Source of the DNA: Segetibacter sp.
Lineage (GTDB): Bacteria > Bacteroidota > Bacteroidia > Chitinophagales > Chitinophagaceae
Length of the DNA stretch: 64,000 nucleotides
Assembly (NCBI GenBank): GCA_043736115.1
Contig: JAYTDC010000068.1
Span: 409 to 64,408 of the forward strand
Direction: 5' to 3'
Of this stretch, positions 3-34,667 are shown piece after piece. A program made the translations under genes and the position numbers. Under the pieces are notes generated by a model. That model was not told the origin of the DNA. It worked only from the letters and a program-made list of their open reading frames with translations, and ran no database searches. Numbering within the stretch: position 1 is the first letter of the stretch; each line of letters starts with the position of its first letter.

Positions 3-896
3 AGTTTTGGCAATGCCAATACCTTCACAGGTCTTAGGGCGGGCAAATACAGGGTATCCATTTTGGATGCTAATGGCTGTGCAGGCATTACCAGCCAGGT
101 GACTATTACACAACCTGTTGCTGTAACAGGGACTGCTTCCTCTACACCTGCAACTTGTTTTGGAGGGGCTTCAGGCTCTATTACGGTTACACCATCTACA
201 GGAGTCGTACCATTTATGTACAAGCTGGGCACTACAGGAACTTTTGGCAGTTCAAATGTTTTTAACAACGTAAAAGGTGGTAATTACATCGTTTATTTAC
301 AGGATGCCAATACATGTGTAGGTTATACGACTGTTACTGTATTGCAACCAACCAAATTAAGCGCTACCTACACCAAAACAGACGAAACCTGCCCCAATGC
401 AAAAAATGGTTCAGTAACGATAACCCCTTCAGGTGCCACTCCGCCTTACAGTTACAGATTTGGTACTACAGGCAACTTTGTTTCATCCAATACCTTCAGC
501 AACCTTAAAGCTGGCAATTACAGAATTTATGTGAGGGATGCCAACAATTGTAGCGGATATTCTATACTAACTACAGTTGGGCAAACATCGCCTACATGCA
601 TCATTTCAACAAGAAATATGGCGGCCAAAACAGACATAGCTGCTACACAGCAAAGTCTTGCTGTTCAGTTGACACCTAATCCAAGCAACAGTTTTTTTAC
701 GCTGCGGGTAAAAGCTACAGAACAAAGTGCTGTACAAATAAGGGTTATTGATGTAAACGGCAAAAGCTTATTTACTGCCAAAGGAATGACTGAACAGGCT
801 TTCAGATTTGGTGAGTCATTTGCACCGGGTGTGTATATGATAGAAGTAAGGCAGGGTGATGAAGTGAAGACGGTGAAGGGTGTGAAGATGAAGTAG
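3..896 (+). CDS. SprB-repeat, T9SS type A CTD protein (5' truncated by window edge)
   Basis: Frame is open from base 3 ([26 protein letters not shown]...). It has SprB-type repeats (C-x-G-x3-GSITVTP...Y.V...DAN.C) and a C-terminal CTD (PNPS...PGVYMIEV...K.VK). Confidence 0.9.
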   Translation, partial: SFGNANTFTGLRAGKYRVSILDANGCAGITSQVTITQPVAVTGTASSTPATCFGGASGSITVTPSTGVVPFMYKLGTTGTFGSSNVFNNVKGGNYIVYLQDANTCVGYTTVTVLQPTKLSATYTKTDETCPNAKNGSVTITPSGATPPYSYRFGTTGNFVSSNTFSNLKAGNYRIYVRDANNCSGYSILTTVGQTSPTCIISTRNMAAKTDIAATQQSLAVQLTPNPSNSFFTLRVKATEQSAVQIRVIDVNGKSLFTAKGMTEQAFRFGESFAPGVYMIEVRQGDEVKTVKGVKMK

Positions 897-957
897 AATT
901 AGGAATTAGGAATTAGGAATTTGCAATGACTTATTGACAAATGACTGAATGACTGAA
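897..957. repeat. Short tandem repeats (AGGAATT x3; AATGACT(G/T) x3) in the 3' UTR
   Basis: aggaatt at 901, 908 and 915, followed by aatgactt/aatgactg/aatgactg. Confidence 0.8.
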
Positions 958-960
958 ATA

Positions 961-998
961 AAAAGCCGCCCTGACTGGATGTTGGGGCGGCTTTTTTT
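961..998 (+). terminator. Intrinsic terminator (likely bidirectional)
   Basis: aaaagccgccc-loop-gggcggc followed by T7. Confidence 0.85.
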
Positions 999-1135
999 GA
1001 TTGGTGGAAATTATATTCCGGCACGTACTTGAGGTTACATTGGAACTGTCTATGAAAAAGAACTTTGAGTATGAACTTAATCAAGACGTGCTTCACCTGC
1101 AATTAACAGTCTTCATTTGATAAGTCACGTTAAAT

Positions 1136-1168
1136 TTTGGCATTACAAATTTTCCCAAAATAGATTTG
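1136..1168 (+). promoter_or_regulatory. Bacteroidota sigma-A type promoter
   Basis: TTTG (1136-1139), 21-nt spacer, TAGATTTG (1161-1168) matches TTTG-N19-21-TAnnTTTG, about 80 nt before the ATG at 1247. Confidence 0.6.
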
Positions 1169-1246
1169 TATAAGGGGAAAAATAAAACCCCGAAAAAATA
1201 ACGATTACTTTTGAGCGGTATTTATACAATTTAAAACCTTGCTCAA

Positions 1247-3676
1247 ATGAAATTTTTAATCACCCTGTTTGTAGGTCTTCAATTCATTATTTGCCCCAAT
1301 TATTCTGTTGCACAGGCAAGGCTTGTTGCCAATGGTCCGGGCAATACGTATGAATTAATCAACAACATTCTTGCACCCAATTACACATCAATAGAAGCAC
1401 CGGATCAATGCAGCAGCCATCCATCTTTTGGCAGGCATATTGCGGAAGTATATGACTCAGCTCTTGGAAAATATGTATTTGAATTTTACATTCACGTACC
1501 CACCGGTTTTCCTGTTACTGCAACTACTGCTGATAATGACAGGTGCATTAATTTTGACAGACAAAGAGTAGAGATAAAGACTTATGAGTCTTCGCCTGAT
1601 AGTATGAAAGGAACTGTTGGCGAAATACTAACTTGCATTTGGAGATTCAAAATTCCTGCTGGCTTTCAACCCTCATCTTCATTTACACATATTCATCAAA
1701 TAAAAGCTGTTGGTGGAGATGATGATTTGCCTTTTTTTACCTTAACTCCACGCAAAGGAACCCCCAATAAAATGGAGCTTATTTATGTTGCAGATTCAAG
1801 CTCGGGTACTGTCAAATATGCCAATGTAAATTTATCATTGTTTGAAAACGTTTGGGTAGAAGCAACAGAAGTCATCAAGGTTGGAAACCCCGGCACTTAT
1901 TCAATTGTAATAAAGAGAGTGAGTGATGGGGTAACCGTGATGTCTTACACCAATCCGGGCATTAAAACTATTCGGCCGGGCAATACTTTCATCAGGCCCA
2001 AATGGGGAATTTACAGAAGTTTAAATGCGCCTGCTGACCTGCGTGATGAAACACTACGCATTGCTGATATTTCTATAACAGATGGCACACCAACAGTCAC
2101 CATTAGCACTGCAAATACGACATTTTGCAGCAATAATAGTGTTGTGTTTACTGCTGCGAATAATAATGGGGGAATAGCCCCAACCTATCAATGGAAAAAC
2201 AATGGGACAAATATTGACACAGGTGCAACCATAACTGTTTCAGCCGGTGTGTTGCATAATGGTGATGTGATTACTTGTGTTTTAACAGTCAATAACCCTG
2301 TTCAAACAAATAATATTGATATAAGCAATGCCATTAAAATGACGGTAAAATCAAGCTCTGTTTCTACAACAAACACAAGCATTTGCCCGGTTGAATTGCC
2401 TTATCACTGGAATGGGTTAACCTTTTCGGGTGCAGGTACACAATCCAAAACATTTACAGGAGGCAATGCACAAGGATGCGACAGCACTGCTACATTGGTA
2501 TTGGCAGTTAATCAACCTACTACTTCAGATACTACTGCCGCTGTTTGTAATACGTTTACCTGGCACGACAGCACGTACAAAGCATCAACAGATGCCATTT
2601 GGCACACTACCAACGCAGCAGGTTGCGACAGTGCCAGAACATTACACCTGACTATTACTTCTGTTACCTCTAATACCACTAAAACAAATGCTACATGCTA
2701 TGGTACTGCAACAGGTTCTTTCACTGTAAACCCTACTTATGGTGTTAGTCCTTTTACCTATCGCATAGGTACAACAAGCAGTTATGTATCATCCAATGTA
2801 TTTAATAACCTTAAGGCAGGCAAATACACGGCTTCCATTTTAGATGCCAATGGCTGTGCAGGTATTACCAGCCAGGTAACCATAACCCAACCTGTTGCTG
2901 TTACAGGCTCTGCATCCTCTACACCTGCAACTTGTTATGGAGTCGCCACAGGTTCTATTACGGTTACACCATCTACAGGCGTTGCACCATTTATGTACAG
3001 GTTAGGCACTACAGGAACCTTTGGCAGTTCAAATGTCTTTAGTAATGTAAAAGGTGGTAATTACATCATTTATTTACTGGATGCAAATACATGTATAGGT
3101 AATAAATCAGTCACTGTATTACAACCAACCAAATTAAGCGCCACCTTTACCCAAACACCTGAAACCTGCCCCAATGCAAAAAATGGTTCAGTAACAGTAA
3201 CCCCGTCAGGTGCAACCCCGCCTTATACTTACAGATTTGGCAGTACAGGAAGCTTTGGTACCAACAATACCTTCAGCAACCTGGCAGCCGGCAGTTACAG
3301 AAGTTATGTAAATGATGCCAACAATTGTAGTGGCTATTCTATTTTGACTACTGTGGGGCGTACATTGACTGTTTGCCCCATTGCAACAAGAAATATGGCG
3401 GCCAAAACAGACATAGCTGCTACACAGCAGGGGCTTGCTTTTCAGCTGACACCCAACCCAAGCGACAGTTATTTTACGTTGCGTGTAAAAGCTGCGCATA
3501 ATGAGGCTATACAGTTAAGGGTGATTGATGTAAACGGTATAAGCTTGTTTACTGCCAAAGGAATGGCTGAACAGGCTTTTAAATTTGGTGAGTCATTTGC
3601 ACCGGGTGTGTACATGATAGAAGTTATGCAGGGTGATGAAGTGAAAACCGTGAAAGCGATAAAAATCAGGAATTAA
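1247..3676 (+). CDS. T9SS cargo: polysaccharide-lyase-like (heparin lyase I/PL7-like jelly roll) head + Ig-like + 3 SprB repeats + CTD
   Basis: Signal peptide; motifs RQRVEIK, HIHQIK, RPKWGIYRS; GCDS neck repeats; three SprB repeats; CTD. Confidence 0.8.
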   Translation: MKFLITLFVGLQFIICPNYSVAQARLVANGPGNTYELINNILAPNYTSIEAPDQCSSHPSFGRHIAEVYDSALGKYVFEFYIHVPTGFPVTATTADNDRCINFDRQRVEIKTYESSPDSMKGTVGEILTCIWRFKIPAGFQPSSSFTHIHQIKAVGGDDDLPFFTLTPRKGTPNKMELIYVADSSSGTVKYANVNLSLFENVWVEATEVIKVGNPGTYSIVIKRVSDGVTVMSYTNPGIKTIRPGNTFIRPKWGIYRSLNAPADLRDETLRIADISITDGTPTVTISTANTTFCSNNSVVFTAANNNGGIAPTYQWKNNGTNIDTGATITVSAGVLHNGDVITCVLTVNNPVQTNNIDISNAIKMTVKSSSVSTTNTSICPVELPYHWNGLTFSGAGTQSKTFTGGNAQGCDSTATLVLAVNQPTTSDTTAAVCNTFTWHDSTYKASTDAIWHTTNAAGCDSARTLHLTITSVTSNTTKTNATCYGTATGSFTVNPTYGVSPFTYRIGTTSSYVSSNVFNNLKAGKYTASILDANGCAGITSQVTITQPVAVTGSASSTPATCYGVATGSITVTPSTGVAPFMYRLGTTGTFGSSNVFSNVKGGNYIIYLLDANTCIGNKSVTVLQPTKLSATFTQTPETCPNAKNGSVTVTPSGATPPYTYRFGSTGSFGTNNTFSNLAAGSYRSYVNDANNCSGYSILTTVGRTLTVCPIATRNMAAKTDIAATQQGLAFQLTPNPSDSYFTLRVKAAHNEAIQLRVIDVNGISLFTAKGMAEQAFKFGESFAPGVYMIEVMQGDEVKTVKAIKIRN

Positions 3677-3733
3677 GCATTAGGAATTATAAACGGTCAA
3701 TAACTTGTTGACCAATGACTCAATGACTTGTAT

Positions 3734-3773
3734 AAAAAGAGCCGCTCCGACTGATTGTTTGAGTGGCTTTTTT
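3734..3773 (+). terminator. Intrinsic terminator
   Basis: gccgctc-loop-gagtggc followed by T6; homologous to 961-998. Confidence 0.8.
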
Positions 3774-3888
3774 AGTTACATAAATTTTGAAACTAATTAT
3801 TACTTCTTGCAGATGAAAGTAATACGGACTTCCATCCCATAATTCACCCGATTCATCCCATTTATTTTTTAGGATTGATTTACTGTTC

Positions 3889-3896
3889 TAAGTTTG
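3889..3896 (+). promoter_or_regulatory. Candidate -7 promoter box for the 4440 gene
   Basis: TAAGTTTG matches TAnnTTTG; no clear -33 TTTG. Confidence 0.35.
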
Positions 3897-4439
3897 AGAA
3901 TGTTTGTGATAATCAATTGGTATTGAAGCGGAAAAGAAGGGATGAGTTGGGAGGATAATGTCAATCATTTTTGTTGAGTTATTTAATTTACTTATGTTTA
4001 ATTTACTCAACAAAATATTTTTTTAATGAAAGAATCAACTTAGATTTAACAAATAGATTTATTTTTTTAACAGTTGTCATCTATCAGAATTAGCAACTCC
4101 TATACCTGGCAACTCTTTTTTGGCCCACTCGTCTTAGGTCAGTTTTTGGAATCTAATCATACAGCATTTTTTGACCCCTGCTTTTAAAAAGCAGACTGCG
4201 ATTTGTTTTTTTATAACCATTTTTTGCTGCTGCTTTCCTATAAAAAACCACCACTTTTCTTAATCCAAATTTTCTGTGCAATACTATAGGGTTTGTTTAA
4301 TGCCCCGCCGCGGCGGGCAAATGCCTTTACCCATCTATTGCGCATGGTTTTCCATGGTGCGGGTGAAAGCAGGCAAGGTGGCATTGCATAACCTTTGAAA
4401 AAACTAAAGTCATTGAACCATTATAAAAAATAGACCAAA

Positions 4440-7400
4440 ATGAAAACATACACTACCCTAAGGCTTAATTCAGCATTGAGAGCAATGCTATGCAGCAACT
4501 ATCAACTGTTTGCCAAAAACCTGAACAGGAAATTATTTATGGCAATTGCATTGACCATTTTCCTCTGTTCATTTAACAGGGCAAATGCACAAGGCCCCCC
4601 TAATTTACCACCAACAGACATTGCTTTGTCCCCAACCTCCGTAAACGAAAATGTTCCTGCTAATACAGTAGTCGGTACCCTTAGCACCGAAGACCCCGAT
4701 GCGGGCAATACTTTTACCTATTCGTTGGTATCCGGTACAGGCAGCACCGACAATTCCTCATTTATTATTGCAGGCAATGGTATAAAAATCAACATAAGCC
4801 CCGACTACGAAACCGAAAGCGTTTATGCTATTCGTGTAAAAACAACCGATCAGGGCGGGTTTTCATTTGAAAAAGAATTCACCATTACCATCAACGATTT
4901 GTGTGACATTCCTACACCAACTATTTCAGCAGGTGGAGCTACAACCTTCTGTACAGGTGGTTCAGTTGTTTTGTCATCCAGTTCCACCACCGGCAATCAG
5001 TGGTATGTTGATGGAAACATCATGAATGGTGAAACCAATCAGGATTATACAGCAACAGCAAGCGGAACTTATACGGTGGTAGTTGCTGCCAACGGCTGTT
5101 CTTCATCACCTTCACTTGGTAGTGTTGTTACAGTAAATGTCATTCCATCCACACCAACTATTTCAGCGGGTGGAGCTACAACCTTCTGTACAGGCGATTC
5201 GGTTACTTTATCTGCATCCGGTGCCAGTATCCTTTATCAGCGGTATGCATCAACTGTTATTAATTTTAGTTCAGAATATACTCCAACAGATTGGAGTGCC
5301 AACCAGGTACTTGGCGCACCTGATGTATATCCTTCTTATGGAGATTTAGTTAATGCATGGGCGAGCTTAAACGCTGATGATTCCCGTGAGTACCTTGAAT
5401 TAGGTTACTCCAATCCGGCTCCCATCAACTTCATTGATATCTATGAAACCTATTCACCGGGTGCGGTTGACACAGTGTATGTTAAAAATCCGAATACCGG
5501 TTTGTTTGAAATCGTTTATACAGCTACTGCGGTAGCAGCACCTGCGGTTGCACGCATATTGCACATTACATTTCCTGAAACAAGCTTTAATGTTTCGGAA
5601 ATACGAATTGCGATAAATTCAGGGGCAGTGCCCGACTTTAATGAAATTGATGCAGTGGCAATAGGAAAGGAGGGCAATTATTTATGGTCAACAGGTGCAA
5701 ATACACAAAGTATTACCGTTAAAACAGCAGGCAGCTATACGGTGCAGGTCACCAACAGCAATGGTTGTAGTGCAACATCTGCGGCCACCACAGTAACAGT
5801 AAATTCCATTTTTCCTACAATTACCGTATCTACCCTGCCTGCAACTTCCACTGTGGTTGATTTTGATAATACTGCCAGTGCTATTACCGGTTCGTTTAGT
5901 TTTTGGCCTAGCGGTACTTTTTCACAACCTTTTACACCCCAAATCACAGGTCAACTTAATCAAATAGGCATATCTGTTAATTTTAATGCTGGATTCGTCA
6001 TGTATGATATTAGTTTATCAATAACGGATGGAGTAACTACTCTTCATCAACAAAAATTTTCTTTTTCCGGTACAGGTCCTCGAGGTATAACGTTATCTAA
6101 TCCTGTAAATGTAATTTCCGGTAGCCAATATTATATTATAATATCATGGTCTTGGATTGGTGATCCCAGTACTATGTTGGGGTGGGCAGTTGATTTAAAT
6201 AACGCTGACTTAATTTACAAAACGTATATTCTTCCAACGCCTACAGTATGTGCAGGCTCACCTGCAACACTCACTGCCTCGGGAGCAACATCCTATAGCT
6301 GGAGTGGAGGGGTTACCAACGGGGTTCCTTTTAATCCTTCAACTTCTGCAACATATACTGTAACTGGTACAACGAATGGATGCAGCAGTACGGCAACACA
6401 GATGATAAATGTTACCCCCAACAATACCGCCGGAGTGCCTTCCTCCAATCCTACGGCTTGTATCAATACTGCGTTGACCGATATCATACAAAGTACAACA
6501 GGAGCAACCGGTATTGCAGATGATGGAGTAAGCGGAGTAAACGGATTACCGGCAGGTGTTTCTGCAACCTGGGCAAGTGACCAGATTACAATAAGTGGAA
6601 CACCAACTGCAAGTGGCACATTCAACTACAGCATTCCATTGACAGGTGGTTGCGGTAGTGTAAATGCAACGGGAGCAATTACTGTAGGGCAACCCACTAC
6701 TTCTGATACCACTGCTGCTGTTTGTAATAAGTTTACGTGGCACGATAGTACTTACAAAGTATCAACAGATGCCATTTGGCACACCACCACTGCAGCCGGT
6801 TGCGATAGTGCAAGGACACTGCACCTCACTATATTATCGGTTACTTCAACAACTTCCAAAACAGATGCTGCATGCTATGGTTCGTCAACAGGTGCTATAA
6901 CTGTAAACCCTACTGATGGTGTTAGTCCGTTTACCTATCGCATAGGTACGGTGAGTAGTTATGTCTCCACAAACACTTTCAATAATCTTAGGGCAGGAAA
7001 ATACAGGGTGTCTATCTTGGATGCCAACGGCTGTGCAGGCATAACAAGTCAGGTAACTATTACCCAGCCTTTAGCTCTTACAGGCACTGCTTCTGTTGCC
7101 AATGCAACTTGTTATGGAGGCGCCAAAGGTTCAATTGCCGTAACACCATCAACAGGCATTGCACCGTATATGTACAAGTTAGGAACTACAGGCACTTTTG
7201 GCAGTTCAAACCTGTTCAGCAATTTAAAAGCCGGAGCATACAGGGTGTATATTCAGGATATAAATAGTTGTGTGGGTAATATTGTGGTAACATTAACCCA
7301 ACCAACCAAACTTAGCGCTACCCACACCAAAACAGATGAAACCTGCCCGAATGCAAAAAATGGTTCATTAACGGTAACCGGTGCAGGTGGTACAGCCAAT

Positions 7401-7802
7401 ACTTTTAATAACCTCAAAGCAGCGCAGTATAGGGTATTTATTAATGACGCCAATAACTGTACAGGTTATTCTATTGGGGTACCAATTTTGCAAACACAAC
7501 CTATCTGCCCCATTGTAACAAGAGATATAGCAGCCAAAACAGACATAGCCACTACACAGCAAGGTCTTGCTGTTCAGTTATCTCCCAACCCAAGCAACAG
7601 CTATTTTACGTTGCGTGTAAAAGCTACAGAACAAAGTGCTGTACAAATAAGGGTGATTGATGTAAACGGCAGAAGCATGTTTACAGCCAAAGGACTACCC
7701 GAACAGGCTTTCAGATTTGGTGAATCATTTGCACCGGGTTTGTACATGATAGAAGTAAGACAAGGGGATGGAGTGAAAACGGTGAAAGCAGTGAAGAATT
7801 AA
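4440..7802 (+). CDS. T9SS cargo: cadherin-like domain + Ig-like repeats with two inserted domains + 3 SprB repeats + CTD
   Basis: Cadherin-like PTDIALS..VNEN...EDPD...DYE....IRV..TDQGG; [13 protein letters not shown] Ig repeats; SprB stalk; CTD. Confidence 0.85.
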
Positions 7803-7844
7803 CAGTTATGAGTTTAGGATGAACAATGAATATTGTTTGCTGAT

Positions 7845-7878
7845 AAAGACCCGCTGCCAATTGCAGCGGGTCTTTTTA
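7845..7878 (+). terminator. Intrinsic terminator
   Basis: aaagacccgctgc-loop-gcagcgggtcttt followed by Ts. Confidence 0.9.
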
Positions 7879-8156
7879 TTAGAGCCCAATAGCCAACTTA
7901 CATAATTTATTCATCATTACTACTTCTGATCTTTATCGTAACTTTGAACAATAACCTTTTCAAAAGATACTTGTCCCTAATGGAATTCAGTTGAGACTTT
8001 GTGTGGAATCAATTGTATCCCAAAAGCTTAATATTTTAAAGTACTACAACTTATATGTTGGATTGATTTATCTGAAGAAAACCCGTTTTCAAATCCAATA
8101 TTTTATATAAACACTTCTGGCTTTTTATTTTTCATTATCATTAAACCAAACTACTC

Positions 8157-9872
8157 GTGAAGAAAATTATTACACTTCTACTTTTATTGCCATTGTCGGT
8201 ATTTGCAACCACATTTACAGTAAGCAATACAAATGATGCTGGTACGGGCAGCTTACGACAAGTTATAACGAATGCCAATGCAGATGCCAATGCCCCACAC
8301 ATTATAAACATTACAGTTAGTGGCACAATAAGTCTCTTGTCTGATTTGCCCGCATTGTCTAAGAGTACCACTATCAATGGAGCTTCAGCAGGCTCCGTCA
8401 TTTCCGGCAATAATCTCCACCGCATCTTTCGGGCTATAGGCACCAGCACCAACCTTATCAATATACAACTGCGCAGGCTTACGCTACAAAATGCTTATCT
8501 CACAGTGGCAGGTCCTGACCTGGCCGGAGGTGCAGCATTATACGGAAACTATATTGGCGTTATTGTAATAGAAGATTGCCATTTTAAAAACGACACTACC
8601 AAAGTAACGACTACAGATAGTTATGCTGAAGTAAGGGGCGGTGCCTGTTACCTAAACGCAACAGGAAGCATTCCTAACGGTTCCTCTGCCATCATCAGGA
8701 GGTGTACCTTTTCTGGCAATGCCGCTATATTAGCTTCTAATCAAACTGCTTATACCGATGGGGGTGCTTTGTACAGTATTTCGCTGACCGATACTATTGA
8801 AAACTGCACTTTTACAAACAACTATTGCAGTGGCAGGTCTGTCATTGCCGGAGGTTCTGTCAGGGCCTCCGGTGCAGGTGTTGCGTTTTATGGTTCATCT
8901 GTTCGTTTTATAAATTGCACAATTGCATACAATAGTTGTGCAGGCCAGCAGACAGCGGGTGGTTCTGTTGATTCATTGGGTGCAGGTGTTCGTCTGCTCA
9001 AATACGGGTTTGCAACTTATTTTAAGAATTGCATAATAGATAAAAACACAGGCAGCGGTACGCCCAATATTTATCCGGCAGGCTTTGTATCAGAGGGGTA
9101 CAATGTGATAGGCAGCACAGGTGCGGTACCCGCTAATAATTTTGTGGCTACTGATACCATCAATGCCAATTCCAGGGTTAATGTCTTAGCCAATAATGGC
9201 GGTCTTACTCCGACCTGTTCTATACAATCCAATAGTGTTGCGGTAAATAGGGTGCCCGCAGGTGGGGCACCTGATACCGACCAGCGTGGATACTTAAGGG
9301 CGGGAAAACCTGATGCCGGGGCATACGAATACAACGGGGCTATTTTCCCCCTTCATCTGCTAAGTTTTTCTGCTTTGCAAAAAGACCGGAATGTTCAGCT
9401 AAAATGGACGACAGCCAATGAAATCAATGTTGCTGATTTTATTATAGAACGAAGTATTGAGGGAAAAGACTTTTATGTTATAGGCGAAAAAGCAGCTTAT
9501 GGTAACAGTACATCTAACAAAAGCTATTATTTCGCAGATAACAAGCCACTGAAAGGCAAAAGTTATTATCGCCTGAAAATGGTTGACATGGACGGAAAAT
9601 ATACTTATTCTATAACTATTGTGATTACTATCAAACCGGCTGACAAGCTGACCATATATCAAAACCCCGTTGTAGAAAAATTAGCATTTAGCATATCAGG
9701 CAGTGCAACTACGGCAAGGTTGTATGATATGGAAGGAAAGCTGATGATGGAGAAAAAAATAGCAACCGGCGACAATCAAATAGCCGTGCGATCTTTAACC
9801 AAAGGAAGCTATATTTTGCAGGTTTACGAAAATAGTGAATTAATAGGCAAGGTGACCTTTATAAAATTGTAG
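8157..9872 (+). CDS. T9SS cargo with right-handed beta-helix and choice-of-anchor-Q-like domain
   Basis: GTG start; signal peptide; TVSNTNDAGTGSLRQ; repeated I.NCTF..N strands; LANNGG.TPT...DQRG.....DAGAYEY; P..L..F.A Ig domain + CTD. Confidence 0.8.
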   Translation: MKKIITLLLLLPLSVFATTFTVSNTNDAGTGSLRQVITNANADANAPHIINITVSGTISLLSDLPALSKSTTINGASAGSVISGNNLHRIFRAIGTSTNLINIQLRRLTLQNAYLTVAGPDLAGGAALYGNYIGVIVIEDCHFKNDTTKVTTTDSYAEVRGGACYLNATGSIPNGSSAIIRRCTFSGNAAILASNQTAYTDGGALYSISLTDTIENCTFTNNYCSGRSVIAGGSVRASGAGVAFYGSSVRFINCTIAYNSCAGQQTAGGSVDSLGAGVRLLKYGFATYFKNCIIDKNTGSGTPNIYPAGFVSEGYNVIGSTGAVPANNFVATDTINANSRVNVLANNGGLTPTCSIQSNSVAVNRVPAGGAPDTDQRGYLRAGKPDAGAYEYNGAIFPLHLLSFSALQKDRNVQLKWTTANEINVADFIIERSIEGKDFYVIGEKAAYGNSTSNKSYYFADNKPLKGKSYYRLKMVDMDGKYTYSITIVITIKPADKLTIYQNPVVEKLAFSISGSATTARLYDMEGKLMMEKKIATGDNQIAVRSLTKGSYILQVYENSELIGKVTFIKL

Positions 9873-10050
9873 CAATTATGTTAATGCAGATCTTTGCCTT
9901 TTTCGTTCGCTAATATTTTCTGCTGTTGGCAAGTAAGGCACCTACGACTTTGTGTGTAGTAATTTATTGCAGATAATACCTAACGCCACTACACAAAAAA
10001 GTAGACTGAACCCAAAAGGTTAGATAAATTTAAAATTAATTTTGATCATG

Positions 10051-10084
10051 ATGAGCTCGATAATGTATCGGGCTCATTTCTTTT
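10051..10084 (+). terminator. Hairpin / probable terminator
   Basis: atgagctcgata-atg-tatcgggctcat followed by ttctttt. Confidence 0.55.
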
Positions 10085-10163
10085 AGATTCAGTTTAATTT
10101 TTGATCATTTATGTAATTATTATAGGTAAACCTGTACTTACAAGAAAGAATTAATTAGTAAAG

Positions 10164-10199
10164 AAAAGCAGTTCAACCATCATAATTGAACTGCTTTTT
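10164..10199 (-). terminator. Bidirectional intrinsic terminator downstream of the FKBP gene
   Basis: aaaagcagttcaa-loop-ttgaactgctttt. Confidence 0.8.
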
Positions 10200-10262
10200 C
10201 TCTATTAATATCAGATGATACCTAAATTAAACTGTAATTAAACTGTACTATCTTTTACACTA

Positions 10263-11234
10263 CTAATGGTTCGGTTGCTGATTAGGATCTTGCTGAGGAT
10301 TACCGCCCTGATCCTGCGGATTACCACCCTGACCATTTCGCATACCCATAGGCATTTTAGGTTGTGCAGGTGCTTCTTCAATTTTAAGCACTTCAACTTC
10401 AAACTTCAACGCTGCATAACGAGGAATGGAAGGCGGCATACCCTGTGGGCCATAACCCATCATAGCAGGTATATAGAGATTAGCCTTGCCACCCAATCCT
10501 AATTTCAAAATTCCTTCTTCCCATCCTCTGATAGTTTGACCTGCACCAACTACAAACGGGAATGGTTGAGTATGGTGAAATGAAGTATCGGTGTTACTGT
10601 CAAATTTTTTACCATTTTCAATTAATGACCCGGTATAATTAACCGTAACCTGTTTGCCGTTTTGTACCTTTTCAGCAGCACCCGGATTTATCACTTCAAC
10701 AAAAACACCATTTTCAGTTTTTTCTGCCTTGATACCTTTTTTGTTCAAATCTTTTTCCAGTTCAGCGGTCTCTCTTGCTTTTTCCTTGTCCATTTCCTGC
10801 TGTTGGTCTTTCATAACATCTTCGCGGTTTGAAAATGCTTTAACAATCCGCAAACCTGTTACTAACTGATCACCTCTTTTAAAGATACCTTTATAATCAG
10901 TTGTACCTCTTTTAACCATTGTATCTACCTGCGCTATAGTTATTAAGCTATCTCCTACTGAACAATTTCTAAGTACTTCATTAAAGTCATGAGAAAGCTT
11001 GCTACTTGTATCTACCGGAATATATTCAGGCATATTAGTAGTTGAAAACAAAATGGTGTCTTTTGGAGCAATCGTAATTGTCCCATTAATTTTCACAATG
11101 TCACCTGCCTTAAGCTTGGCCCCACCCTTTCCTTTGATAATTTTGTACGCTAACCCTGATTTGGTTTTTTCGTAATCAGCACTGCATGAAGCCAACAATA
11201 TTGCTACACCTGCGGCTGCAAAAATTCTTTTCAT
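10263..11234 (-). CDS. FKBP-type peptidyl-prolyl isomerase (lipoprotein)
   Basis: Lipobox LASC; VNYTGSL...FDSN; F.VG.GQTIRGWEEG; IPAMMGYG; IP....L.FEVEV. Confidence 0.93.
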   Translation of the reverse strand: MKRIFAAAGVAILLASCSADYEKTKSGLAYKIIKGKGGAKLKAGDIVKINGTITIAPKDTILFSTTNMPEYIPVDTSSKLSHDFNEVLRNCSVGDSLITIAQVDTMVKRGTTDYKGIFKRGDQLVTGLRIVKAFSNREDVMKDQQQEMDKEKARETAELEKDLNKKGIKAEKTENGVFVEVINPGAAEKVQNGKQVTVNYTGSLIENGKKFDSNTDTSFHHTQPFPFVVGAGQTIRGWEEGILKLGLGGKANLYIPAMMGYGPQGMPPSIPRYAALKFEVEVLKIEEAPAQPKMPMGMRNGQGGNPQDQGGNPQQDPNQQPNH

Positions 11235-11303
11235 TTTTATTGTTTTTTAGTTTTGAGGTTTATCTTCAACTGTTTTTTCAACCGTTGGTTTTTGCCTCTT
11301 ATA

Positions 11304-12311
11304 TTACTGTAATTGTTTCTGATATTCTTTTATCACCTGTTTAAATTTCCAAACCGTCTGATCAAGTGAATCGCTGCTGCGGCCACCGGCAGCATTAAAA
11401 TGCCCACCACCTTCAAAATGGGTACGGGCAAATGTATTCACATCAAAATCACCTTTGCTCCTGAAACTCCATTTGCGCTCTTCATCTCTGTCTATGACCA
11501 ATGCACCCATTCTAATTCCTTGTATAGTCAACAGGTAGTTTACCAATCCTTCAGAGTCACCTGTTTTAATGTGAAAACGCAACAGATCATTTTTAGGAAT
11601 GAACATCAATGCAGTGTTATATTCATAAAACACTTCCATTCTGTTGAGCAAGGCATGGCCTATAAACCTTAGCCTGTTCTCCAGTGAATTATCATAAATA
11701 TTTTCATGCACCAACGTATGACTAAATCCGGTTTCTTTTAGCTGCGCCACCATCAGGTGAACACTGCCGGTTGTACCGGGAAATCTGAAAGATCCCGTAT
11801 CGGTCATGACACCTGTATAAAGGCTTTGGGCTATTTCAGTATTTATTTTATCCTCATGCCCGCTATCAACAATAAAATCAAAGACCATTTCACTTGTGCT
11901 GCTTTTGGCTGTACTGCTAATACCGTAAGTAAAATAATCTACCTGTGGTTGTTCGTGGTGGTCTATTAATACTTTAATGCAGCTTAGCCCCTCTAGTACA
12001 GGCTCCATATTTTTAGTACGGTGCAGTACATTAAAATCAAGACAAAACAATACGTCTGCTTCTTGTAGAAATTTAGTGGCAACTTCTTTAGAAAGCTCAA
12101 AATCAACCACCATATTTGCCCCCGGCATCCATTTTAAAAATGAAGCCCAATTGGTTGGTGAAATGACCGTAACCGAATGACCTAGTTGTATTAAAAAATG
12201 ATAGAGCCCTAAAGATGAACCCATAGCATCACCATCGGGTTTTTGGTGAGTGGTTATGACCACTTTTTTAGGCGTATCAAGATGTGGGTAAAATTGCTGT
12301 ATTGCTTGCAT
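11304..12311 (-). CDS. DHH family phosphoesterase (NrnA-like)
   Basis: HQKPDGDA, LIDHH, TDTGSF, GGGHFNAAG motifs. Confidence 0.93.
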   Translation of the reverse strand: MQAIQQFYPHLDTPKKVVITTHQKPDGDAMGSSLGLYHFLIQLGHSVTVISPTNWASFLKWMPGANMVVDFELSKEVATKFLQEADVLFCLDFNVLHRTKNMEPVLEGLSCIKVLIDHHEQPQVDYFTYGISSTAKSSTSEMVFDFIVDSGHEDKINTEIAQSLYTGVMTDTGSFRFPGTTGSVHLMVAQLKETGFSHTLVHENIYDNSLENRLRFIGHALLNRMEVFYEYNTALMFIPKNDLLRFHIKTGDSEGLVNYLLTIQGIRMGALVIDRDEERKWSFRSKGDFDVNTFARTHFEGGGHFNAAGGRSSDSLDQTVWKFKQVIKEYQKQLQ

Positions 12312-12440
12312 AGAAAGGCGGCAAAATTGTACTATTTGCCTTACAACATCAAAACATTTTTGTTATACTTTTTAAAATGAGCCTTAATTTTTAGGCTTTT
12401 ACGTGATTTACCTGCACTTTTGCGGCCAAATAATGTAAAA

Positions 12441-12857
12441 ATGACAAACAGAACTTTTACCATGATTAAGCCCGATGCCACAGGAAAAGGGTACACCGGA
12501 GCTATATTAGACCAAATTATTAAAGCCGGATTTTCCATAAAAGCAATGAAATGGACAAGGCTTAGCAAAGAAAAAGCAGGTGAATTTTACGCAGTTCATA
12601 AGGAAAGACCTTTTTACGGTGAATTAGTTGAGTTTATGAGTAGTGGAAATATTGTTGCTGCCATTCTGGAAAAAGAAAATGCAGTAGCAGAATTTCGTAC
12701 ACTAATTGGTGCTACCAACCCTGCACAGGCCGACGAAGGAACAATCCGTAAAAACTTTGCAGCTTCAATTGGCGAAAATGCAGTACATGGCAGCGATAGC
12801 GACGAAAATGCTGAAATAGAAGGTAATTTCTTCTTTAGCGCTTTGGAGAAATTTTAA
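12441..12857 (+). CDS. ndk: Nucleoside-diphosphate kinase
   Basis: [30 protein letters not shown]; ATG at 12441 preferred over the upstream 12420 start. Confidence 0.97.
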
Positions 12858-12930
12858 TAAAAATTGCTTTCTAATGAACATCATAGTACCATAAGAAACA
12901 CAGCTTTCGAGAAATAATAATTGCTGGAAA

Positions 12931-13168
12931 AATAAAAAATGCCTTGATCTAAGGCATTTTTTATGGAATCAAACACTGCTTTGAGAAAATTTATCGTATT
13001 TACGCTGTTTACTAACTGTTCAATATTGGGATAGTGAGAACTATGATTTTTAAAAGAAAGATTATCAGATCTTAAATAATTAAACAAGTGTTGAAAATCC
13101 AAATAACTTCAATAAAAAATGCCCTAAACAAGGGCATTTTTTATTGAATCAAACACTGCTATGAGAAA
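12931..13168. repeat. Two ~58-nt direct repeats (12931-12988, 13111-13168), 180 nt apart, each with an A/T-flanked hairpin
   Basis: AATAAAAAATGCC(T/C)T-N5-A(A/G)GGCATTTTTTAT(G/T)GAATCAAACACTGCT(T/A)TGAGAAA in both copies. Confidence 0.9.
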
Positions 13169-13360
13169 TATTACATTCAATTAAACGGTTAAAATTTTAC
13201 AATATTGCATAAAGCTAAAGTTCGGCCTAATATTTTATATATACCAATAATTTTCTTTCAGGATTTAGAGTACTCATAATTAAACCAATAAATCTGCGTT
13301 TATTATTTCATGAGTGCAAATGAAATAATCAACCCTTTATTTATCAAATCCATAATCGCC

Positions 13361-13471
13361 ATGAACTTTTCAAACTTGAGTATTCTTGATATTACCAGCC
13401 TTATTGTTGTGATTGCATTAGCAATTTTGCTTTTTATGTTGAACAAAAGAAAAGGTGTACAAATTGATTAA
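13361..13471 (+). CDS. Small single-pass membrane protein, 36 aa (not in the supplied ORF track)
   Basis: Translated by hand: MNFSNLSILDITSLIVVIALAILLFMLNKRKGVQID*; hydrophobic helix followed by KRK. Confidence 0.5.
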   Translation: MNFSNLSILDITSLIVVIALAILLFMLNKRKGVQID

Positions 13472-13551
13472 TTTATCAGTACACATGCTTTTACTAAACA
13501 AGGCATTTAATTTCATCTTTAAATTGTAAAAACAGGTTTCAGCCTTATTTA

Positions 13552-14880
13552 TCAGGCTGAAAGCAACTTCATCAAAATTTTTAACCGCTTTACTGCATAT
13601 TTTATTAAAGACAATTCAGTTGTATTGTTATGTTGCGGGGCAATGTTATGTTGCAGGGCAATGTTATGTTGCAGGGCAATGTTATGTTGATTGTACCAAA
13701 CAGCAGCAGCATCTTCATCGGTGAAGATAACACTACTCTCAACTTCATTTTCATTATCAATAATAGTGTGAATTGGATTGTTATTTTTAATTGATATTTC
13801 ACATAGCCTTTCTTTTATTTTTTCCAAATCAGAGGAATAATGAGGATAGTCTTTTTGTAATTCTGTTATTATCGTAAGCACAAAATATTTGTTGCTAACC
13901 ATAATTTGTTCATTACTATGAAAGATTTTTATGAACTTTTCTACAAATTGTATAATTGGATCCTTTGCATACTCTGCTACAAAATGATCCTCTGTTTGTC
14001 CATCATTATTTAGGCTGATAAAAGAAAATTGAAATGGAATATGCCTGTACGGCCAATGACCATCATATTCAGGAATCGCTACTCTGTAAGTACCTATGTG
14101 TAAAAATTTTATCGGTCTTGTTGTAAAAATAATTTTACCATTATCAACTTCAGGTTTTGGATTATTTGGAAGGTTGATTTGAAACATAGGATCTTCATGA
14201 TGACAAAAACCATAATAATCACAAGTATAGGGAATGTTACATTGCGAGCCGATTTCAATGTTTGGCATTTGCTTTTGCATAGCTAGCAACTTAAGTTCAG
14301 CAGTTCTTGTTGCAATGAATGGTTGCATTACAATAACCTGTTCTTTAACCGAATGCTTGATAAACAATTGCTTTAACTGCAAATCACCTGAACGTACATA
14401 CCCTGTATTTATGTGTACAAGAAAAATATCTTCTAACTCCAAACCTGCATTTGTTATAACAAAGTATTGTAGTGCTGCATCCTGTATGAACTGTTCTTTT
14501 AGGCCTGTACTACTCTTTACCTCATAAGCATACCATTTACCTCTGTGCTTCAGCAAAATATCAACGGCACACAAAACCCCTTCGTATTGAAAGGCCGCTT
14601 CAAAAATTATTGTATGCCCTTCGGCTATAAGCCTGGCTGTATCTCTAACGGATTCGCGGTAGTGAAATACATCTGTGGGGCTAGCATCTGCCCCGCTACC
14701 AAAGAGTTTGCGTGCAAGCAATCCAACATCAGTTCCCTGCATAAGTATGCGCTGCTGCTGGGCAGTCGGTTCATCTCTAAGTTTATAATGATTTTTGTAA
14801 AGCCACAAAGACTTGACACACTGACAACCCCTTACAAATGTGGATTTGGAAAGAATATGGCGCGGAGGCAGTGCTGACAA
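13552..14880 (-). CDS. DUF2779-family protein (PD-(D/E)XK nuclease-like N-terminus, atypical C-terminus)
   Basis: LSKSTF.RG.QC.KSLWL; VDIL......W.AYEVKSST; C..PY.C.YY.FC; P.Y.G.WPY..IPFQFS; TTG start. Confidence 0.8.
   Translation of the reverse strand: MSALPPRHILSKSTFVRGCQCVKSLWLYKNHYKLRDEPTAQQQRILMQGTDVGLLARKLFGSGADASPTDVFHYRESVRDTARLIAEGHTIIFEAAFQYEGVLCAVDILLKHRGKWYAYEVKSSTGLKEQFIQDAALQYFVITNAGLELEDIFLVHINTGYVRSGDLQLKQLFIKHSVKEQVIVMQPFIATRTAELKLLAMQKQMPNIEIGSQCNIPYTCDYYGFCHHEDPMFQINLPNNPKPEVDNGKIIFTTRPIKFLHIGTYRVAIPEYDGHWPYRHIPFQFSFISLNNDGQTEDHFVAEYAKDPIIQFVEKFIKIFHSNEQIMVSNKYFVLTIITELQKDYPHYSSDLEKIKERLCEISIKNNNPIHTIIDNENEVESSVIFTDEDAAAVWYNQHNIALQHNIALQHNIAPQHNNTTELSLIKYAVKRLKILMKLLSA
13625..13689. 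repeat. 18-nt tandem repeat (about 3.6 copies) inside the DUF2779 CDS
   Basis: atgttatgttgcagggca units, encoding QHNIAL-QHNIAL-QHNIAP-QHN on the minus strand. Confidence 0.92.
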
Positions 14881-14967
14881 AATAATAAGTTTTGAATTCT
14901 ATTTTTTAGTTGGTTTCTTACAACCAAAAATCAGCAGGCAGTCAAATTACAATCAATAGACCCAATA

Positions 14968-17175
14968 TTATTTTCTGATTTTTAATGTTACAGTTCCAGC
15001 ATTAGAAATCATTGAAGCTATATACAATCCGCTTTGAAAATCAGCCAAACTTATATTCAAATTATTTGATCCCGCTGACAATACTTTTTCAGTAGTTAAT
15101 ACTTTTTTGCCTTCAATTGTATAAAGGAGTACCTGCAATTTGTCATTTACCGGATTAATATTTTTTATGGCCAACATAGTATTATTGACATTATAAAAGG
15201 CAGACAATTGCTTACCGTTCAATTTTATTTCTATAACATTACTATAGGTAAAACTTCCATCTATATCAATCATTTTCAAACGATAGAAACCAATGGGCAA
15301 AGGTTCTTTATCCGTAAAAGAATATTTATTCTGCGAAGCATTATTAGCGCTTACATTACCAATAGCTTTAAAATTAACAGCATCAACAGCTCTTTCTATT
15401 TCAAATTTCCTCACATTTATTTCCTGAGCTGTAGACCATTGTAACTGCACTTGCTTGCTTGCAACAGTACCACTAAAAGCTACTAGCTTAAGCGGCAATA
15501 CTGTTCCGGTTTTATTGATAACCCAATTGTTTGGATCTACAACTATGCTATTAGGAGTCAAATGGCTATAAGGTATTTTGAAAGTTTGTGGATTGGTAGT
15601 CTGATTAAGAATAATAATGGTATCGCCGGTGGGTGAGGTTATTTTATATTCCATTAACCCTTTGAACATAGGTGTTACAGAAGGCATAGACACTGTTTGA
15701 TTCACAGTAAGTATCAATGAATCGGCACCCCATTTAAAATAGTTGACATTATGCGTTGGGTAACCTTCACCATATACCCATTGGTTAAAAAAGTCTGTAA
15801 GGTTTTTACCGCTTACCTGTTCGCAAACCGTTTTAAAATCATTGGTAAAAGCAAAGTTGTCTTTATATTGATTTTGATAAGTTTTCAGTATATTAAAGAA
15901 TACGGTATCACTCTGCACTTCGAATCTTAGATTATGCAGTACCGCAGCACCTTTATCATATGACAACCTGCTGCTGAAAATTCGTCCTTCATCATAAGCA
16001 CTAGACAAAGGCAAGTAGCAACTACCACTTGCTTGAGACATTATGTTCTGATGCTTACTATTCATATTAGAAGCAGCGGGGGTAACGTAGAACGAAGGAA
16101 ACAATTCTCTCATAAGATATGCACTGTAGGTGGCAAATCCTTCGTTGAGCCATATATCCTGCCATGTTCCACAGGTAATATTGTCACCAAACCACTGATG
16201 CCCCAATTCATGTGCAATAAGCTCTAAACCAAAACTGCTCATAGTAGACATGGTTTGGTGCTCCATACCACCACCTATGATAGCATGAAGGTGTCCATAC
16301 TTTTCTTTGCTGAATGGATACAGTCCAAATAATTCGCTTAACTTTTCTATAAAAACCGTAGTCCTATCAAGATTTGTCTGAATAGAACTTAAATACCCGG
16401 AGCTGTTGGAAATATAATGCTGAACCAATATAGAATCACCATTCATGGCGGCAGGCTTCGCATAATTTTTATAACCAGTATAATTACCTGCCGCAATACA
16501 AGGCATATAATAACTCATTGGATATCTTGTTGACCATTGATATTGCGTTTTGTTACCTGCAACCGGAACAACAGCCTTTAATAAACCATTACTGCCAGCA
16601 ACATAAGGATTTGGCGTTGTTAACCATATGTCAGCAGAGTCAATTTTATCATTTAATAGCTGCTTGGCAGGAAACCATTCCCGTGCCTGAAAAGATTCAG
16701 AAACGGTAGCTGCAAATGTAAGTCCCGAAGTATTATCTATACCATATGCAAGACCATTAACTATAGTGCCCTTATAAACAAACCGTGCGGTAAATTCCGA
16801 ATTATCGGGTATTGGGTTTGCAAATGGCACATAAATATGATCATTACCTCGGGTATAAGGAGTAATGACATTGTTGATATAAAGAGAATCCAAAGTCATA
16901 TTGCTTTTGAACTCAATGGCAAAGGTATCAATAGACTGGTTTGCGGTCATTTTATAAAAACATGAACCGGAAAGAAAACGGAGGTTAGGGGTAACATTCA
17001 AATCCAATTTGAGAAAATGAATGTTATACTTATCCATAAGGTTACTCTGGAAAAAATTAGCCCCGGTAGTACTTTGGCCCGAAAATCTTGCATCAACAGT
17101 TTGATTAGGGTTTTGAGCAATTACTTGTGTACCCAGGAATAGAGAAACGAGAACGAAGTGTATAAAATTTTTCAT
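14968..17175 (-). CDS. M1 family zinc aminopeptidase with T9SS CTD
   Basis: GGGMEHQ, AHELGHQWFG, WLNEGFATY, YDKGA; C-terminal PLKLVAF Ig domain + CTD. Confidence 0.93.
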   Translation of the reverse strand: MKNFIHFVLVSLFLGTQVIAQNPNQTVDARFSGQSTTGANFFQSNLMDKYNIHFLKLDLNVTPNLRFLSGSCFYKMTANQSIDTFAIEFKSNMTLDSLYINNVITPYTRGNDHIYVPFANPIPDNSEFTARFVYKGTIVNGLAYGIDNTSGLTFAATVSESFQAREWFPAKQLLNDKIDSADIWLTTPNPYVAGSNGLLKAVVPVAGNKTQYQWSTRYPMSYYMPCIAAGNYTGYKNYAKPAAMNGDSILVQHYISNSSGYLSSIQTNLDRTTVFIEKLSELFGLYPFSKEKYGHLHAIIGGGMEHQTMSTMSSFGLELIAHELGHQWFGDNITCGTWQDIWLNEGFATYSAYLMRELFPSFYVTPAASNMNSKHQNIMSQASGSCYLPLSSAYDEGRIFSSRLSYDKGAAVLHNLRFEVQSDTVFFNILKTYQNQYKDNFAFTNDFKTVCEQVSGKNLTDFFNQWVYGEGYPTHNVNYFKWGADSLILTVNQTVSMPSVTPMFKGLMEYKITSPTGDTIIILNQTTNPQTFKIPYSHLTPNSIVVDPNNWVINKTGTVLPLKLVAFSGTVASKQVQLQWSTAQEINVRKFEIERAVDAVNFKAIGNVSANNASQNKYSFTDKEPLPIGFYRLKMIDIDGSFTYSNVIEIKLNGKQLSAFYNVNNTMLAIKNINPVNDKLQVLLYTIEGKKVLTTEKVLSAGSNNLNISLADFQSGLYIASMISNAGTVTLKIRK

Positions 17176-34100: not shown

Positions 34101-34667
34101 TACAAAGGTGCCACAGTGGGTCAACCCATTGTTATGAGTGCGGTAGCTACAAAAACAGATGCACTTTGTCCCGGTTCTGCTACAGGCAATTTATCCATAA
34201 CCCCATCAGGCGGTACAGCCCCTTATACCTACAGACTTGGCTCCACGGGTACTTTTGGCACAGCAAATACTTTTTATAATCTTAAACCGGGGTCATACAG
34301 AGTATTTATTATTGACGCAAATGGTTGTTCAGGATTCTCAATTGCTGTTACCATTGGTACTCAATCGGTCGCCTGTACCTCAAGCATTATTGCCAAACAA
34401 GAAAATGTAATCAACAGTGAACAGTTAAATTCATCTAACTACTCACTTTATCCCAACCCCACAACTAATAACTTTTGGGTTGATTTTGGTAAAATGAATA
34501 AACCAATATTGGTAAGATTACTTGATATAAATGGTCATATAATATCAACAGTAAAAGCACAAGGCAAACAGGTCATCAACTTTGGCCATAAACTGATGCC
34601 GGGACTTTATATTGTTCAAATTTTAGAAGACAGCAAAGTAACTAGCCTAAAAGTTTTAAAAATTTAG
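31155..34667 (+). CDS. T9SS cargo: 6-blade Kelch propeller + 4 Ig-like repeats + 4 SprB repeats + CTD
   Basis: Six W.QK..FGG..R..A..F.IG.KGYIG.G.DG.Y.KDFWEY blades; four ANG..G....V.WW...G.G..LG.G..L.NV..GTY...V.GDC repeats; SprB stalk; CTD. Confidence 0.9.
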   Translation: MLKILLLLFCTFFIAETSFAQPCAATITPSGSTTFCSGGSVILNANTGANTWTQKSAFGGTARNAYAAFSIGNKGYIGTGNDGSVLTKDFWEYDPATDTWAQKANFGGTPRRYAVGFCIGSKGYIGTGYDGSYRKDFWEYNPTNNTWSQKTDFTGTARDQATGFAIGNKGYIGTGNDGGYKKDFWEYDPTSNNWTQKADFGGSARNAATGIFIGGKGYIGNGFDGGYKKDFWEYNTTNNTWIQKSDFGGSPRNACTSFSIGTKGYMGMGFDGGYKKDIWEYDQNVNTWIQKADFGGSGRNAAISFSIDGSGYVGLGFDGAYKKDFWQYNPALLYLWSNGATTPSITVTTSGSYTVTVTNTATGCSETSTTTVVTVNNTMGIATVTAAANPLCINATTTLAANGVYGSNAVVTWWTSAGGTGTNLGTGNTLLNVGPGTYYARVTGDCNPVESSLVITTKTNVGIVSVSAAENFICPGSTTTLTANGITGTNTLVNWWTGTGATGSSLGTGSTLLNVGPGTYYAYVTGDCGNPVEGIIEVNSKVNNGIVSITAATNPLCNNSTTSITANGVTGTNAVVTWWSASGGTGSNLGTGITLPNVTAGTYYAVVNGDCGASAEASLTIDALSVNSIASATAAANPLCTNSTTSLTANGIAGSNSTITWWSASGGNGINYGTGSTLTNVSIGTYFARVTGDCGLPAEAFVTVSGKSPTSSSVTVSNCISYTWHGTVYKTSGNYTYTTINAAGCDSVVTLRLTIFATITSTFTKKDAACNTVSTGSITINPTKGYAPFTYRIGTTGSFTPSNTFNGLSAGLYRISILDVNGCTGTSTQITVVQQTTITGIFTKKDATCNNILNGSIIITPTSGTAPFVYKYGTAGNYITDSISLGLGIGEYRVYLQDVNGCNINTSLTINQPVPVTVSAVTTNTKCIGANNGSITATPNSGFSPFTYKLNSTGTYQTSNKFLNLKAGVYTVFLKDKNGCIGYKGATVGQPIVMSAVATKTDALCPGSATGNLSITPSGGTAPYTYRLGSTGTFGTANTFYNLKPGSYRVFIIDANGCSGFSIAVTIGTQSVACTSSIIAKQENVINSEQLNSSNYSLYPNPTTNNFWVDFGKMNKPILVRLLDINGHIISTVKAQGKQVINFGHKLMPGLYIVQILEDSKVTSLKVLKI

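Follow-up and report, generated by a model that had tools for sequence, protein, structure and literature searches.

A homologous SprB-type tether beneath unrelated heads in a probable family of type IX secretion cargo from Segetibacter

Proteins that join a functional head, immunoglobulin-like (Ig-like) or SprB repeats, and a C-terminal sorting domain (CTD) are already known among the cargo of the Bacteroidota type IX secretion system (T9SS), and the usual name given to such genes by the Prokaryotic Genome Annotation Pipeline is “T9SS type A sorting domain-containing protein”. The fucoidanase Fhf1 of Formosa haliotis, for example, carries a catalytic domain, a cadherin-like domain, an SprB repeat, and a CTD, and is active without the repeat region (PMC7698502), while substrates with SprB repeats and a CTD have been noted in genome surveys (PMC7073777). 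Cargo of the type A pathway passes through Sec, CTD recognition, SprA, PorV, and PorU and is then either attached or released (PMC10202324). Here, we examine a 64,000-nucleotide (nt) stretch of a Segetibacter sp. genome (assembly GCA_043736115.1, contig JAYTDC010000068.1, positions 409 to 64,408; hereafter, the window), in which six genes (g1 to g6; Table 1) end in a homologous cassette, or tether, of SprB-type units and a type A CTD, preceded in all except g6 by one or more copies of a “neck” module. We consider it likely that they are members of a large family of paralogs, all T9SS type A cargo, that arose through ancient domain shuffling and is stably inherited. What is specific to this genome, relative to the architectures already described, is the scale of the family, the positionally conserved cassette, and the uncurated neck.

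Comparison with the closest described systems brings out these features. As in generic T9SS type A cargo, such as Fhf1, the proteins have a putative signal peptide, an N-terminal functional domain, Ig-like/SprB repeats, and a terminal CTD of the TIGR04183 type, but in this genome about 26 paralogs, with heads of at least 12 types, all draw on a single orthologous cassette. Further, enzymes that elsewhere sit directly on the CTD (the M36 peptidases of model NF038113, 869 amino acids [aa], and polysaccharide-lyase homologs of about 362 aa) carry the cassette here. SprB of Flavobacterium johnsoniae, the gliding motility adhesin from which the Pfam SprB repeat derives, is a protein of about 6,500 aa that travels over the cell surface. 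It has the PF13573 repeat motif in common with the present proteins and is exported by the T9SS, as they probably are. It bears a type B CTD and needs SprF (PMC10202324), whereas the proteins of this family are 517-3564 aa long and have a type A CTD (the PorV route) and two to six units. Neither the type B CTD (TIGR04131 / PF13585) nor the giant size of SprB-type gliding adhesins was found in the six window genes, in none of which a Pfam scan matched PF13585 and whose lengths are 517-1170 aa. The best structural match to the predicted tether is GhpA of Aureispira sp. CCB-QB1 (PDB 9flv, 9flw, 9flp; Foldseek E = 6.5e-12), which likewise has strings of Ig-like beta-sandwiches in a T9SS substrate, a likeness at the fold level only (16% identity, template modelling score 0.33). 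Residue numbering in GhpA exceeds 5,000 (PDB entry titles); the proteins here do not have the size of such a multi-thousand-residue filament, and nothing in them indicates oligomerisation. Finally, fibrillar adhesins similarly place a tandem beta-sandwich stalk between a functional tip and an anchoring or sorting end, although here the head is in many cases an enzyme (a peptidase or the putative lyase) and not an adhesive domain, and the anchor would be a putative cleavable CTD instead of LPXTG or an outer-membrane barrel.

The first-pass annotation of the window, made from the letters alone, had proposed that six genes end in three to five SprB repeats plus a type A CTD, and profile searches bore this out. 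SprB repeats (PF13573) occur in all six, in two to five stretches per protein, with E values from 6e-12 to 8e-50 and scores of 45-167 bits against a gathering cut-off of 28. TIGR04183 also matches all six (28.0-40.9 bits; curated cut-off, 23), ending one to six residues before the stop, and PF18962 is above its cut-off in five of the six, the score for g2 being 21.9 against 27. The SprB-type unit itself is 78 aa long with two conserved cysteines, and the PF13573 model (37 positions) spans only its first half; the third unit of g3, from which 15 aa are missing in frame compared with g1 and g2, scores 47, compared with about 105-115. Hydrophobic N-termini ending in AQ, SQ, or AQQ, judged by eye, are seen in g2, g4, g5, g6, and, from the Met at aa 34 that is probably its real start, g3; the N-terminus of g1 lies outside the window. 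At the nucleotide level, g2 and g3 share homology (75.7% over 1150 nt) that starts at the neck, with unrelated sequence upstream, and that between g1 and g2 (79.7% over 1263 nt) starts at the last neck copy, such that matches among g1, g2, and g3 are limited to the last neck copy onward, at 72-80% identity. The proposed necks were located where predicted, at 2513, 6690, and 36927, with the remaining one at 33276 rather than about 33270. The proposal that heads differ upstream of that point held for the polysaccharide-lyase-like, cadherin plus Ig, and Kelch architectures, but g4 and g5 both have Kelch heads that are alike (55% aa, 68% nt identity). The tethers of these two genes are too diverged for nucleotide BLAST, and each is only 45-46% identical to that of g1.

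Beyond the window, we ran our own profiles for the neck (N), unit (S), and CTD (C) on six-frame open reading frames (ORFs) of the whole genome, which revealed 38 ORFs with at least two units. The full pattern of a head followed by N(1-4), S(2-6), and C was present in 26 of these 38, and a further 72 ORFs have the CTD only. The heads span at least 12 Pfam types and show mosaic sharing of sub-modules. Specifically, they include Kelch (at least six genes), cadherin with PKD, reprolysin-type M12B peptidase with Big_2, fungalysin M36 peptidase with a PA domain, CHRD, BNR/sortilin with Calx-beta, LamG, fn3, Big_2, Ig_7, and RCC1 (in the full-length g1), and several have no Pfam match. The M36 member, of which a second paralog is present on contig C171, illustrates how the cassette is added: NF038113, the T9SS-dependent M36 equivalog, has 869 positions, of which only the C-terminal 85 or so align with the CTDs of the window genes, and insertion of the cassette brings the member here to 1257 aa. 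The head of g2 is part of a very large family (3075 matches), whose members often carry PF14099 (polysaccharide lyase). This label comes by way of homologs at 58-69% identity with a precomputed PF14099 assignment, one of them named a heparin lyase I family protein, as a direct Pfam scan of the g2 head returned nothing at E <= 0.001, and no sequence relative was found in the PDB at E <= 1. Such heads occur alone (typically about 276 aa), directly on a CTD (about 362 aa), on Ig or fn3 domains plus a CTD (about 458-576 aa), and on a neck followed by other Ig-like domains, as in P0281, whose g2-type head, Ig domain, and pair of necks lead into further Ig-like domains of another kind in place of SprB units.

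Two observations bear on the history of the cassette. First, units resemble each other by position more than by gene, with an identity between genes of 56.5% for first against first and 51.9% for last against last, compared with 42.6% for first against last within a gene. The units are therefore positionally orthologous, which suggests that the cassette was inherited whole, with middle units gained or lost. Second, the histories of heads and tethers, which the first-pass annotation had wanted compared, are incongruent. In tether trees built from N+S1, and from N+S1 joined to the last unit and CTD (49 rows, from this genome and its sister species), Kelch-headed genes are scattered, and an approximately unbiased (AU) test rejects their forming one clade (p = 6e-38). 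Conversely, one tether clade holds genes with unrelated heads, namely g1, g2, g3, C95_46767, C84, C182, and a BNR-headed gene. Head and tether histories thus differ, implying that heads moved between tethers in the past or that tethers were overwritten.

Structure prediction gives this tether a plausible form. An AlphaFold2 model of the g5 tether, computed from an alignment of 22 tethers, has a mean predicted local distance difference test score (pLDDT) of 86 and folds N and every unit as all-beta beads, followed by a disordered linker (residues 291-307, pLDDT < 50) and the CTD. The best Foldseek matches are Ig-like fragments of GhpA, then fragments of titin, S-layer proteins, and adhesins. 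Given the model and these matches, “stalk of Ig-like beads” is a fair description of a tether that would be rigid and act as a spacer. In the scenario we favor, each protein comprises, in order, a putative Sec signal peptide, a variable head (enzymatic or binding, often with Ig-like modules), and the C-terminal cassette, with one to four necks (50-aa, two-cysteine beta domains), two to six SprB-type Ig-like units, a disordered linker of about 17 aa, and a type A CTD. The cassette would descend entire from one ancestor; over long times, duplication, domain shuffling, and patchy gene conversion between neighbors would have put unrelated heads on it, and each head-tether combination of today is an ordinary, stably inherited gene under purifying selection. 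The proteins would cross the inner membrane via Sec, fold in the periplasm, and be recognized through the CTD; passage through SprA, shuttling by PorV, and processing by PorU would follow, with the CTD cut off in the linker, and the final fate would be surface attachment or release. If attached, the string of N and S beads could hold the head some 15-25 nm from the anchor point.

The genome encodes SprA (2460 bits, in the window), the outer-membrane translocon of the T9SS by which these proteins would leave the cell, as well as GldM (294 bits) and PorV (451 bits), all above cut-offs, with gldM and porV outside the window; porV (C130:17200-18288) adjoins a cluster of six family genes (C130:18990-60824). 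Several points weigh against the scenario as a whole. PorU has weak matches only, at 85 and 69 bits against a cut-off of 420. We infer that the proteins are secreted, lose the CTD, and are anchored at the surface, with the tether as a spacer. Display at the surface is putative, given that cargo with a type A CTD is not always anchored and can be released (PMC10202324). The existence of a headless member, g6, hints that the units may themselves do more than act as a spacer. On the phylogenetic side, the Kelch group was fixed by Pfam before the trees were built, but the AU test was run after a quick tree had been inspected. Finally, this genome and that of the sister species are both metagenome-assembled genomes (MAGs), such that some of the mosaic patterns described below could be binning or assembly artefacts.

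Evidence for stable inheritance comes from the closest relative, G014, a MAG labelled Segetibacter sp. from a genus with at least 24 species representatives. There, a single search at E <= 1e-25 yielded about 30 family genes, a list that may be incomplete, and some genes of the present genome with no partner may be unassembled in G014. For the 20 genes with a clear ortholog, all 20 pairs keep the same head-tether pairing at almost equal length. The orthologs of g4, g5, and g6 stand in the same tandem order in G014. Those of g4 (79% identical) and g5 (88-92% in G014; 81% in a third MAG) have the same architecture as here, and those of g6 (92% and, in the third MAG, 73%) are headless too, in both of these other species. 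The third MAG has g5 and g6 in tandem, and a locus search with g5 alone returned only four loci. The sole change of architecture in the 20 pairs concerns some 155 aa that adjoin the neck on its upstream side, a module that C84 has and its ortholog L125_404 lacks. All tethers and 19 of the 20 heads have ratios of nonsynonymous to synonymous divergence (dN/dS) of 0.07-0.36, and diversifying selection on the heads was rejected; the other head, that of C61, has a dN/dS of 0.68 at a synonymous divergence (dS) of only 0.08.

These comparisons speak to the idea, central to the first-pass annotation, of a head-swapping display platform, in which the neck would be a preferred recombination site and heads would be exchanged now, changing the repertoire of the population. 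Homology between paralogs starts exactly at the neck, as this idea predicts, and two genes have sharp switches in synonymous divergence beside it: the head of the M36 gene has a dS of 0.85 and its tether one of 0.08, the change falling at the N/S1 boundary, while C61 shows the reverse pattern, with the switch at the start of N. The indel in C84 lies directly upstream of the neck, and the g1-g3 array is present here and not in the sister species. However, the exchange of heads at the neck expected between sister species was seen in none of the 20 ortholog pairs, and a change-point analysis of third-codon-position differences across these pairs yielded 31 change-points, of which 4 lie in the neck zone where 3.0 would be expected (P = 0.36), which argues against the neck as a recombination hot spot. 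Further, paralog tethers have diverged by 20-55%, and share identical runs of at most 46 nt; all copies are complete genes, each with a CTD and a putative signal peptide of its own, there being no silent cassettes; and none of the 10 neighboring window ORFs scanned matches a recombinase family (they are housekeeping or efflux genes or have no match). The silent donors, near-identical sites, and dedicated recombinase that define programmed cassette exchange or antigenic variation were thus not found. What stands of the platform idea is one homologous tether beneath unrelated heads in 26 genes genome-wide, while dedicated or ongoing swapping at the neck is, in our assessment, very improbable.

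The neck itself offers a simpler reading of the abrupt start of homology. It is a 50-aa module with two cysteines and the pattern C-x4-W-x4-Y-x2-SG-x-Y...N-x2-GCDS-x3-L-x-L-T-I, present in two copies in g2 (aa 373-420 and 423-472) and in at least two copies in g1 on the contig. A profile of the four window necks matches about 35 ORFs in this 4.6-Mb genome, several of them with tandem arrays, including C107_19460, a type B CTD protein with 12-13 copies. No real Pfam family was found for the isolated neck, for the C107_19460 array, or for five neck-array proteins from a large library. Searching 1.84 billion representative proteins with a profile of 37 copies returned 26,309 protein clusters at E <= 0.001 and 16,827 at E <= 1e-10, among them giant proteins with up to 86 copies and a type A or type B sorting domain at the end. 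The neck is, therefore, an ordinary repeat domain, found in thousands of other proteins, and not a special junction; homology would begin abruptly there because any boundary between unrelated and related domains has that appearance. In its own right, the neck is a candidate for a new curated family, as a domain that lacks a Pfam model and many carriers of which are giant T9SS substrates.

The mosaics of synonymous divergence, for their part, look like ordinary tracts of homologous recombination between lineages. In the M36 pair (C96:1-9037 versus L129, G014:C166), about 2 kb have no third-position differences, from the first SprB unit into the first 70 or so codons of the next gene, while the flanks have about 50%. 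This tract may reflect either recent inter-lineage recombination or a strain-chimeric bin. Chimeric assembly of strains could likewise explain such mosaics in general, as the two genomes were both binned from metagenomes. Relevant here is the notion that the SprB-type units are the working part of these proteins, as an adhesive or polysaccharide-binding array or a docking module, with the heads as add-ons and the proteins perhaps released. Several tethers are indeed more conserved than their heads (98.7% versus 82% in M36; 97.6% versus 86.6% in C189), g6 and its orthologs, which consist of units and CTD only, have been kept in three species at 73-92% identity, and type A CTD cargo is often released (PMC10202324). 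In g5, C61, and C140_5184, however, the tether is less conserved than the head, and the large head-tether differences track dS, pointing to recombination history and not to selection. Moreover, the SprB repeat of Fhf1 is dispensable for its activity (PMC7698502). We think it rather unlikely, on balance, that the units rather than the heads carry the main function. More speculative still, and in our view quite improbable, is a version in which the cassette is a docking module that gathers about 30 enzymes and binding domains on one surface structure, a mixed “tool-belt” fiber. In such a fiber, units could be bundled, as those of the GhpA filament are, or all be carried by a single partner protein, g6 could be a filler or base subunit, and the two-cysteine neck could set the register or the choice of partner.

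The g1-g3 array differs between this genome and that of the sister species. In a better assembly, g3 lies on a 256-kb contig that also carries P0279 and P0280, the full-length counterparts of g1 and C95_46767, respectively. P0279 (911 aa) has an RCC1-type head, four necks, three units, and a CTD (NNNNSSSC), and the tether of P0280 reads NSNSSSC. At least four genes thus stand in tandem in this array, each with a head unrelated to the others. We found no orthologs of g1-g3 in G014, where another CTD protein, of 452 aa, occupies the syntenic site, and the array is, by its absence there, a variable island. Upstream of the array site, G014 also has genes that are found on contig C95 here. G014 does retain the final 30 nt of g3 (…VKTVKALKN*) and, beyond them, the terminator hairpin and g7, which puts one end of the indel inside the last CTD codons, and window positions 7772-10021 match L143 (G014:C17) 7628-9876 at 99% nt identity. 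A partial g2, 96% identical, was present in another sample.

Within the array, the tethers form a patchwork: N+S1 of g2, g3, and C95_46767 are 86-91% alike, with g1 at 65-75%; S2-S3 of g1 and g2 are 85-90% alike; and the CTDs of g1 and g3 are 91-93% alike. This pattern points to old gene conversion between neighbors. A recent event is excluded by the lack of long identical tracts, the longest run being 46 nt. One could go further and attribute the whole array to concerted evolution, with the different tethers of neighbors having been made alike by conversion, such that stalks were overwritten rather than heads moved. The patchwork among the four tandem tethers fits this account, as does an array in G014 (L127, G014:C308, 558-11775) of three tandem family genes, two of which have different heads and tethers about equally close (89%) to a single gene here, C182_16241, which suggests duplication or conversion of the tether inside that array. 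The tether clade of g1-g3, however, includes genes on other contigs, and recent conversion tracts are lacking. Proximity alone, moreover, does not homogenize tethers, because the tandem g4, g5, and g6 do not group in the tether tree, nor do the six family genes on C130, and the g4 and g5 tethers are undetectable to each other by BLAST. Concerted evolution is thus a possible explanation of the array, if a clearly less probable one than ancient shuffling with patchy conversion in a stably inherited family.

Understood as such a family, the genes reveal no new mechanism. They provide a quantified example of how a secreted or surface proteome in the Bacteroidota is assembled from parts, with a stability that can be measured across species: within one genome, peptidases, a putative lyase, and many binding domains all use the same inherited tether and export tag. 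The tether might also be tried as a spacer for T9SS display of foreign domains, provided that anchoring is borne out.

Table 1. Positions of the tethered genes, their parts, and two other T9SS-related genes in the window (nt unless stated; Ig, immunoglobulin).
Gene	Position	Strand	Length	N-terminal part and head	Neck	SprB-type units	CTD and remarks
g1 (3' part only)	3-896	+				three: S1 (cut by window start) to 128, S2 132-362, S3 366-599	654-890, type A
g2	1247-3676	+	809 aa	putative signal peptide; polysaccharide-lyase-like head, about aa 24-283; Ig-like, about aa 280-370	N1 2363-2506; N2 2513-2662	three: 2675-2905, 2912-3139, 3143-3376	3434-3667
g3	4440-7802	+	1120 aa	cadherin; Ig/PKD-like domains with inserts	6690-6839	three: 6849-7082, 7086-7316, 7320-7508 (15-aa deletion)	7563-7796
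g4	31155-34667	+	1170 aa	Kelch propeller; four Ig-like repeats	33276-33425	four: 33438-34376	34428-34664
g5	35745-38087	+	780 aa	Kelch propeller; one Ig-like domain	36927-37076	three: 37086-37790, then disordered linker	37845-38081
g6	38663-40216	+	about 517 aa from ATG 38663; ORF open from 38621	putative signal peptide; headless	none	five: 38747-39916	39974-40210
g7	8157-9872	+		choice-of-anchor Q domain (NF041518)	none	none	type A
sprA	51250-58623	-					TIGR04189, 2460 bits, above cut-off; about 11 kb downstream of g6

Of the other genes in the window, g7 falls outside the family by its lack of neck and units, and marks the conserved flank of the variable g1-g3 island; its repetitive N-terminal region may, at a guess, be right-handed beta-helix-like. 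Just after g7, identity to the sister genome falls from 99% to 86% (window 10012-16452 versus L143 13600-19998), and G014 has an extra 3.7 kb or so, with four ORFs, between g7 and the FKBP gene.

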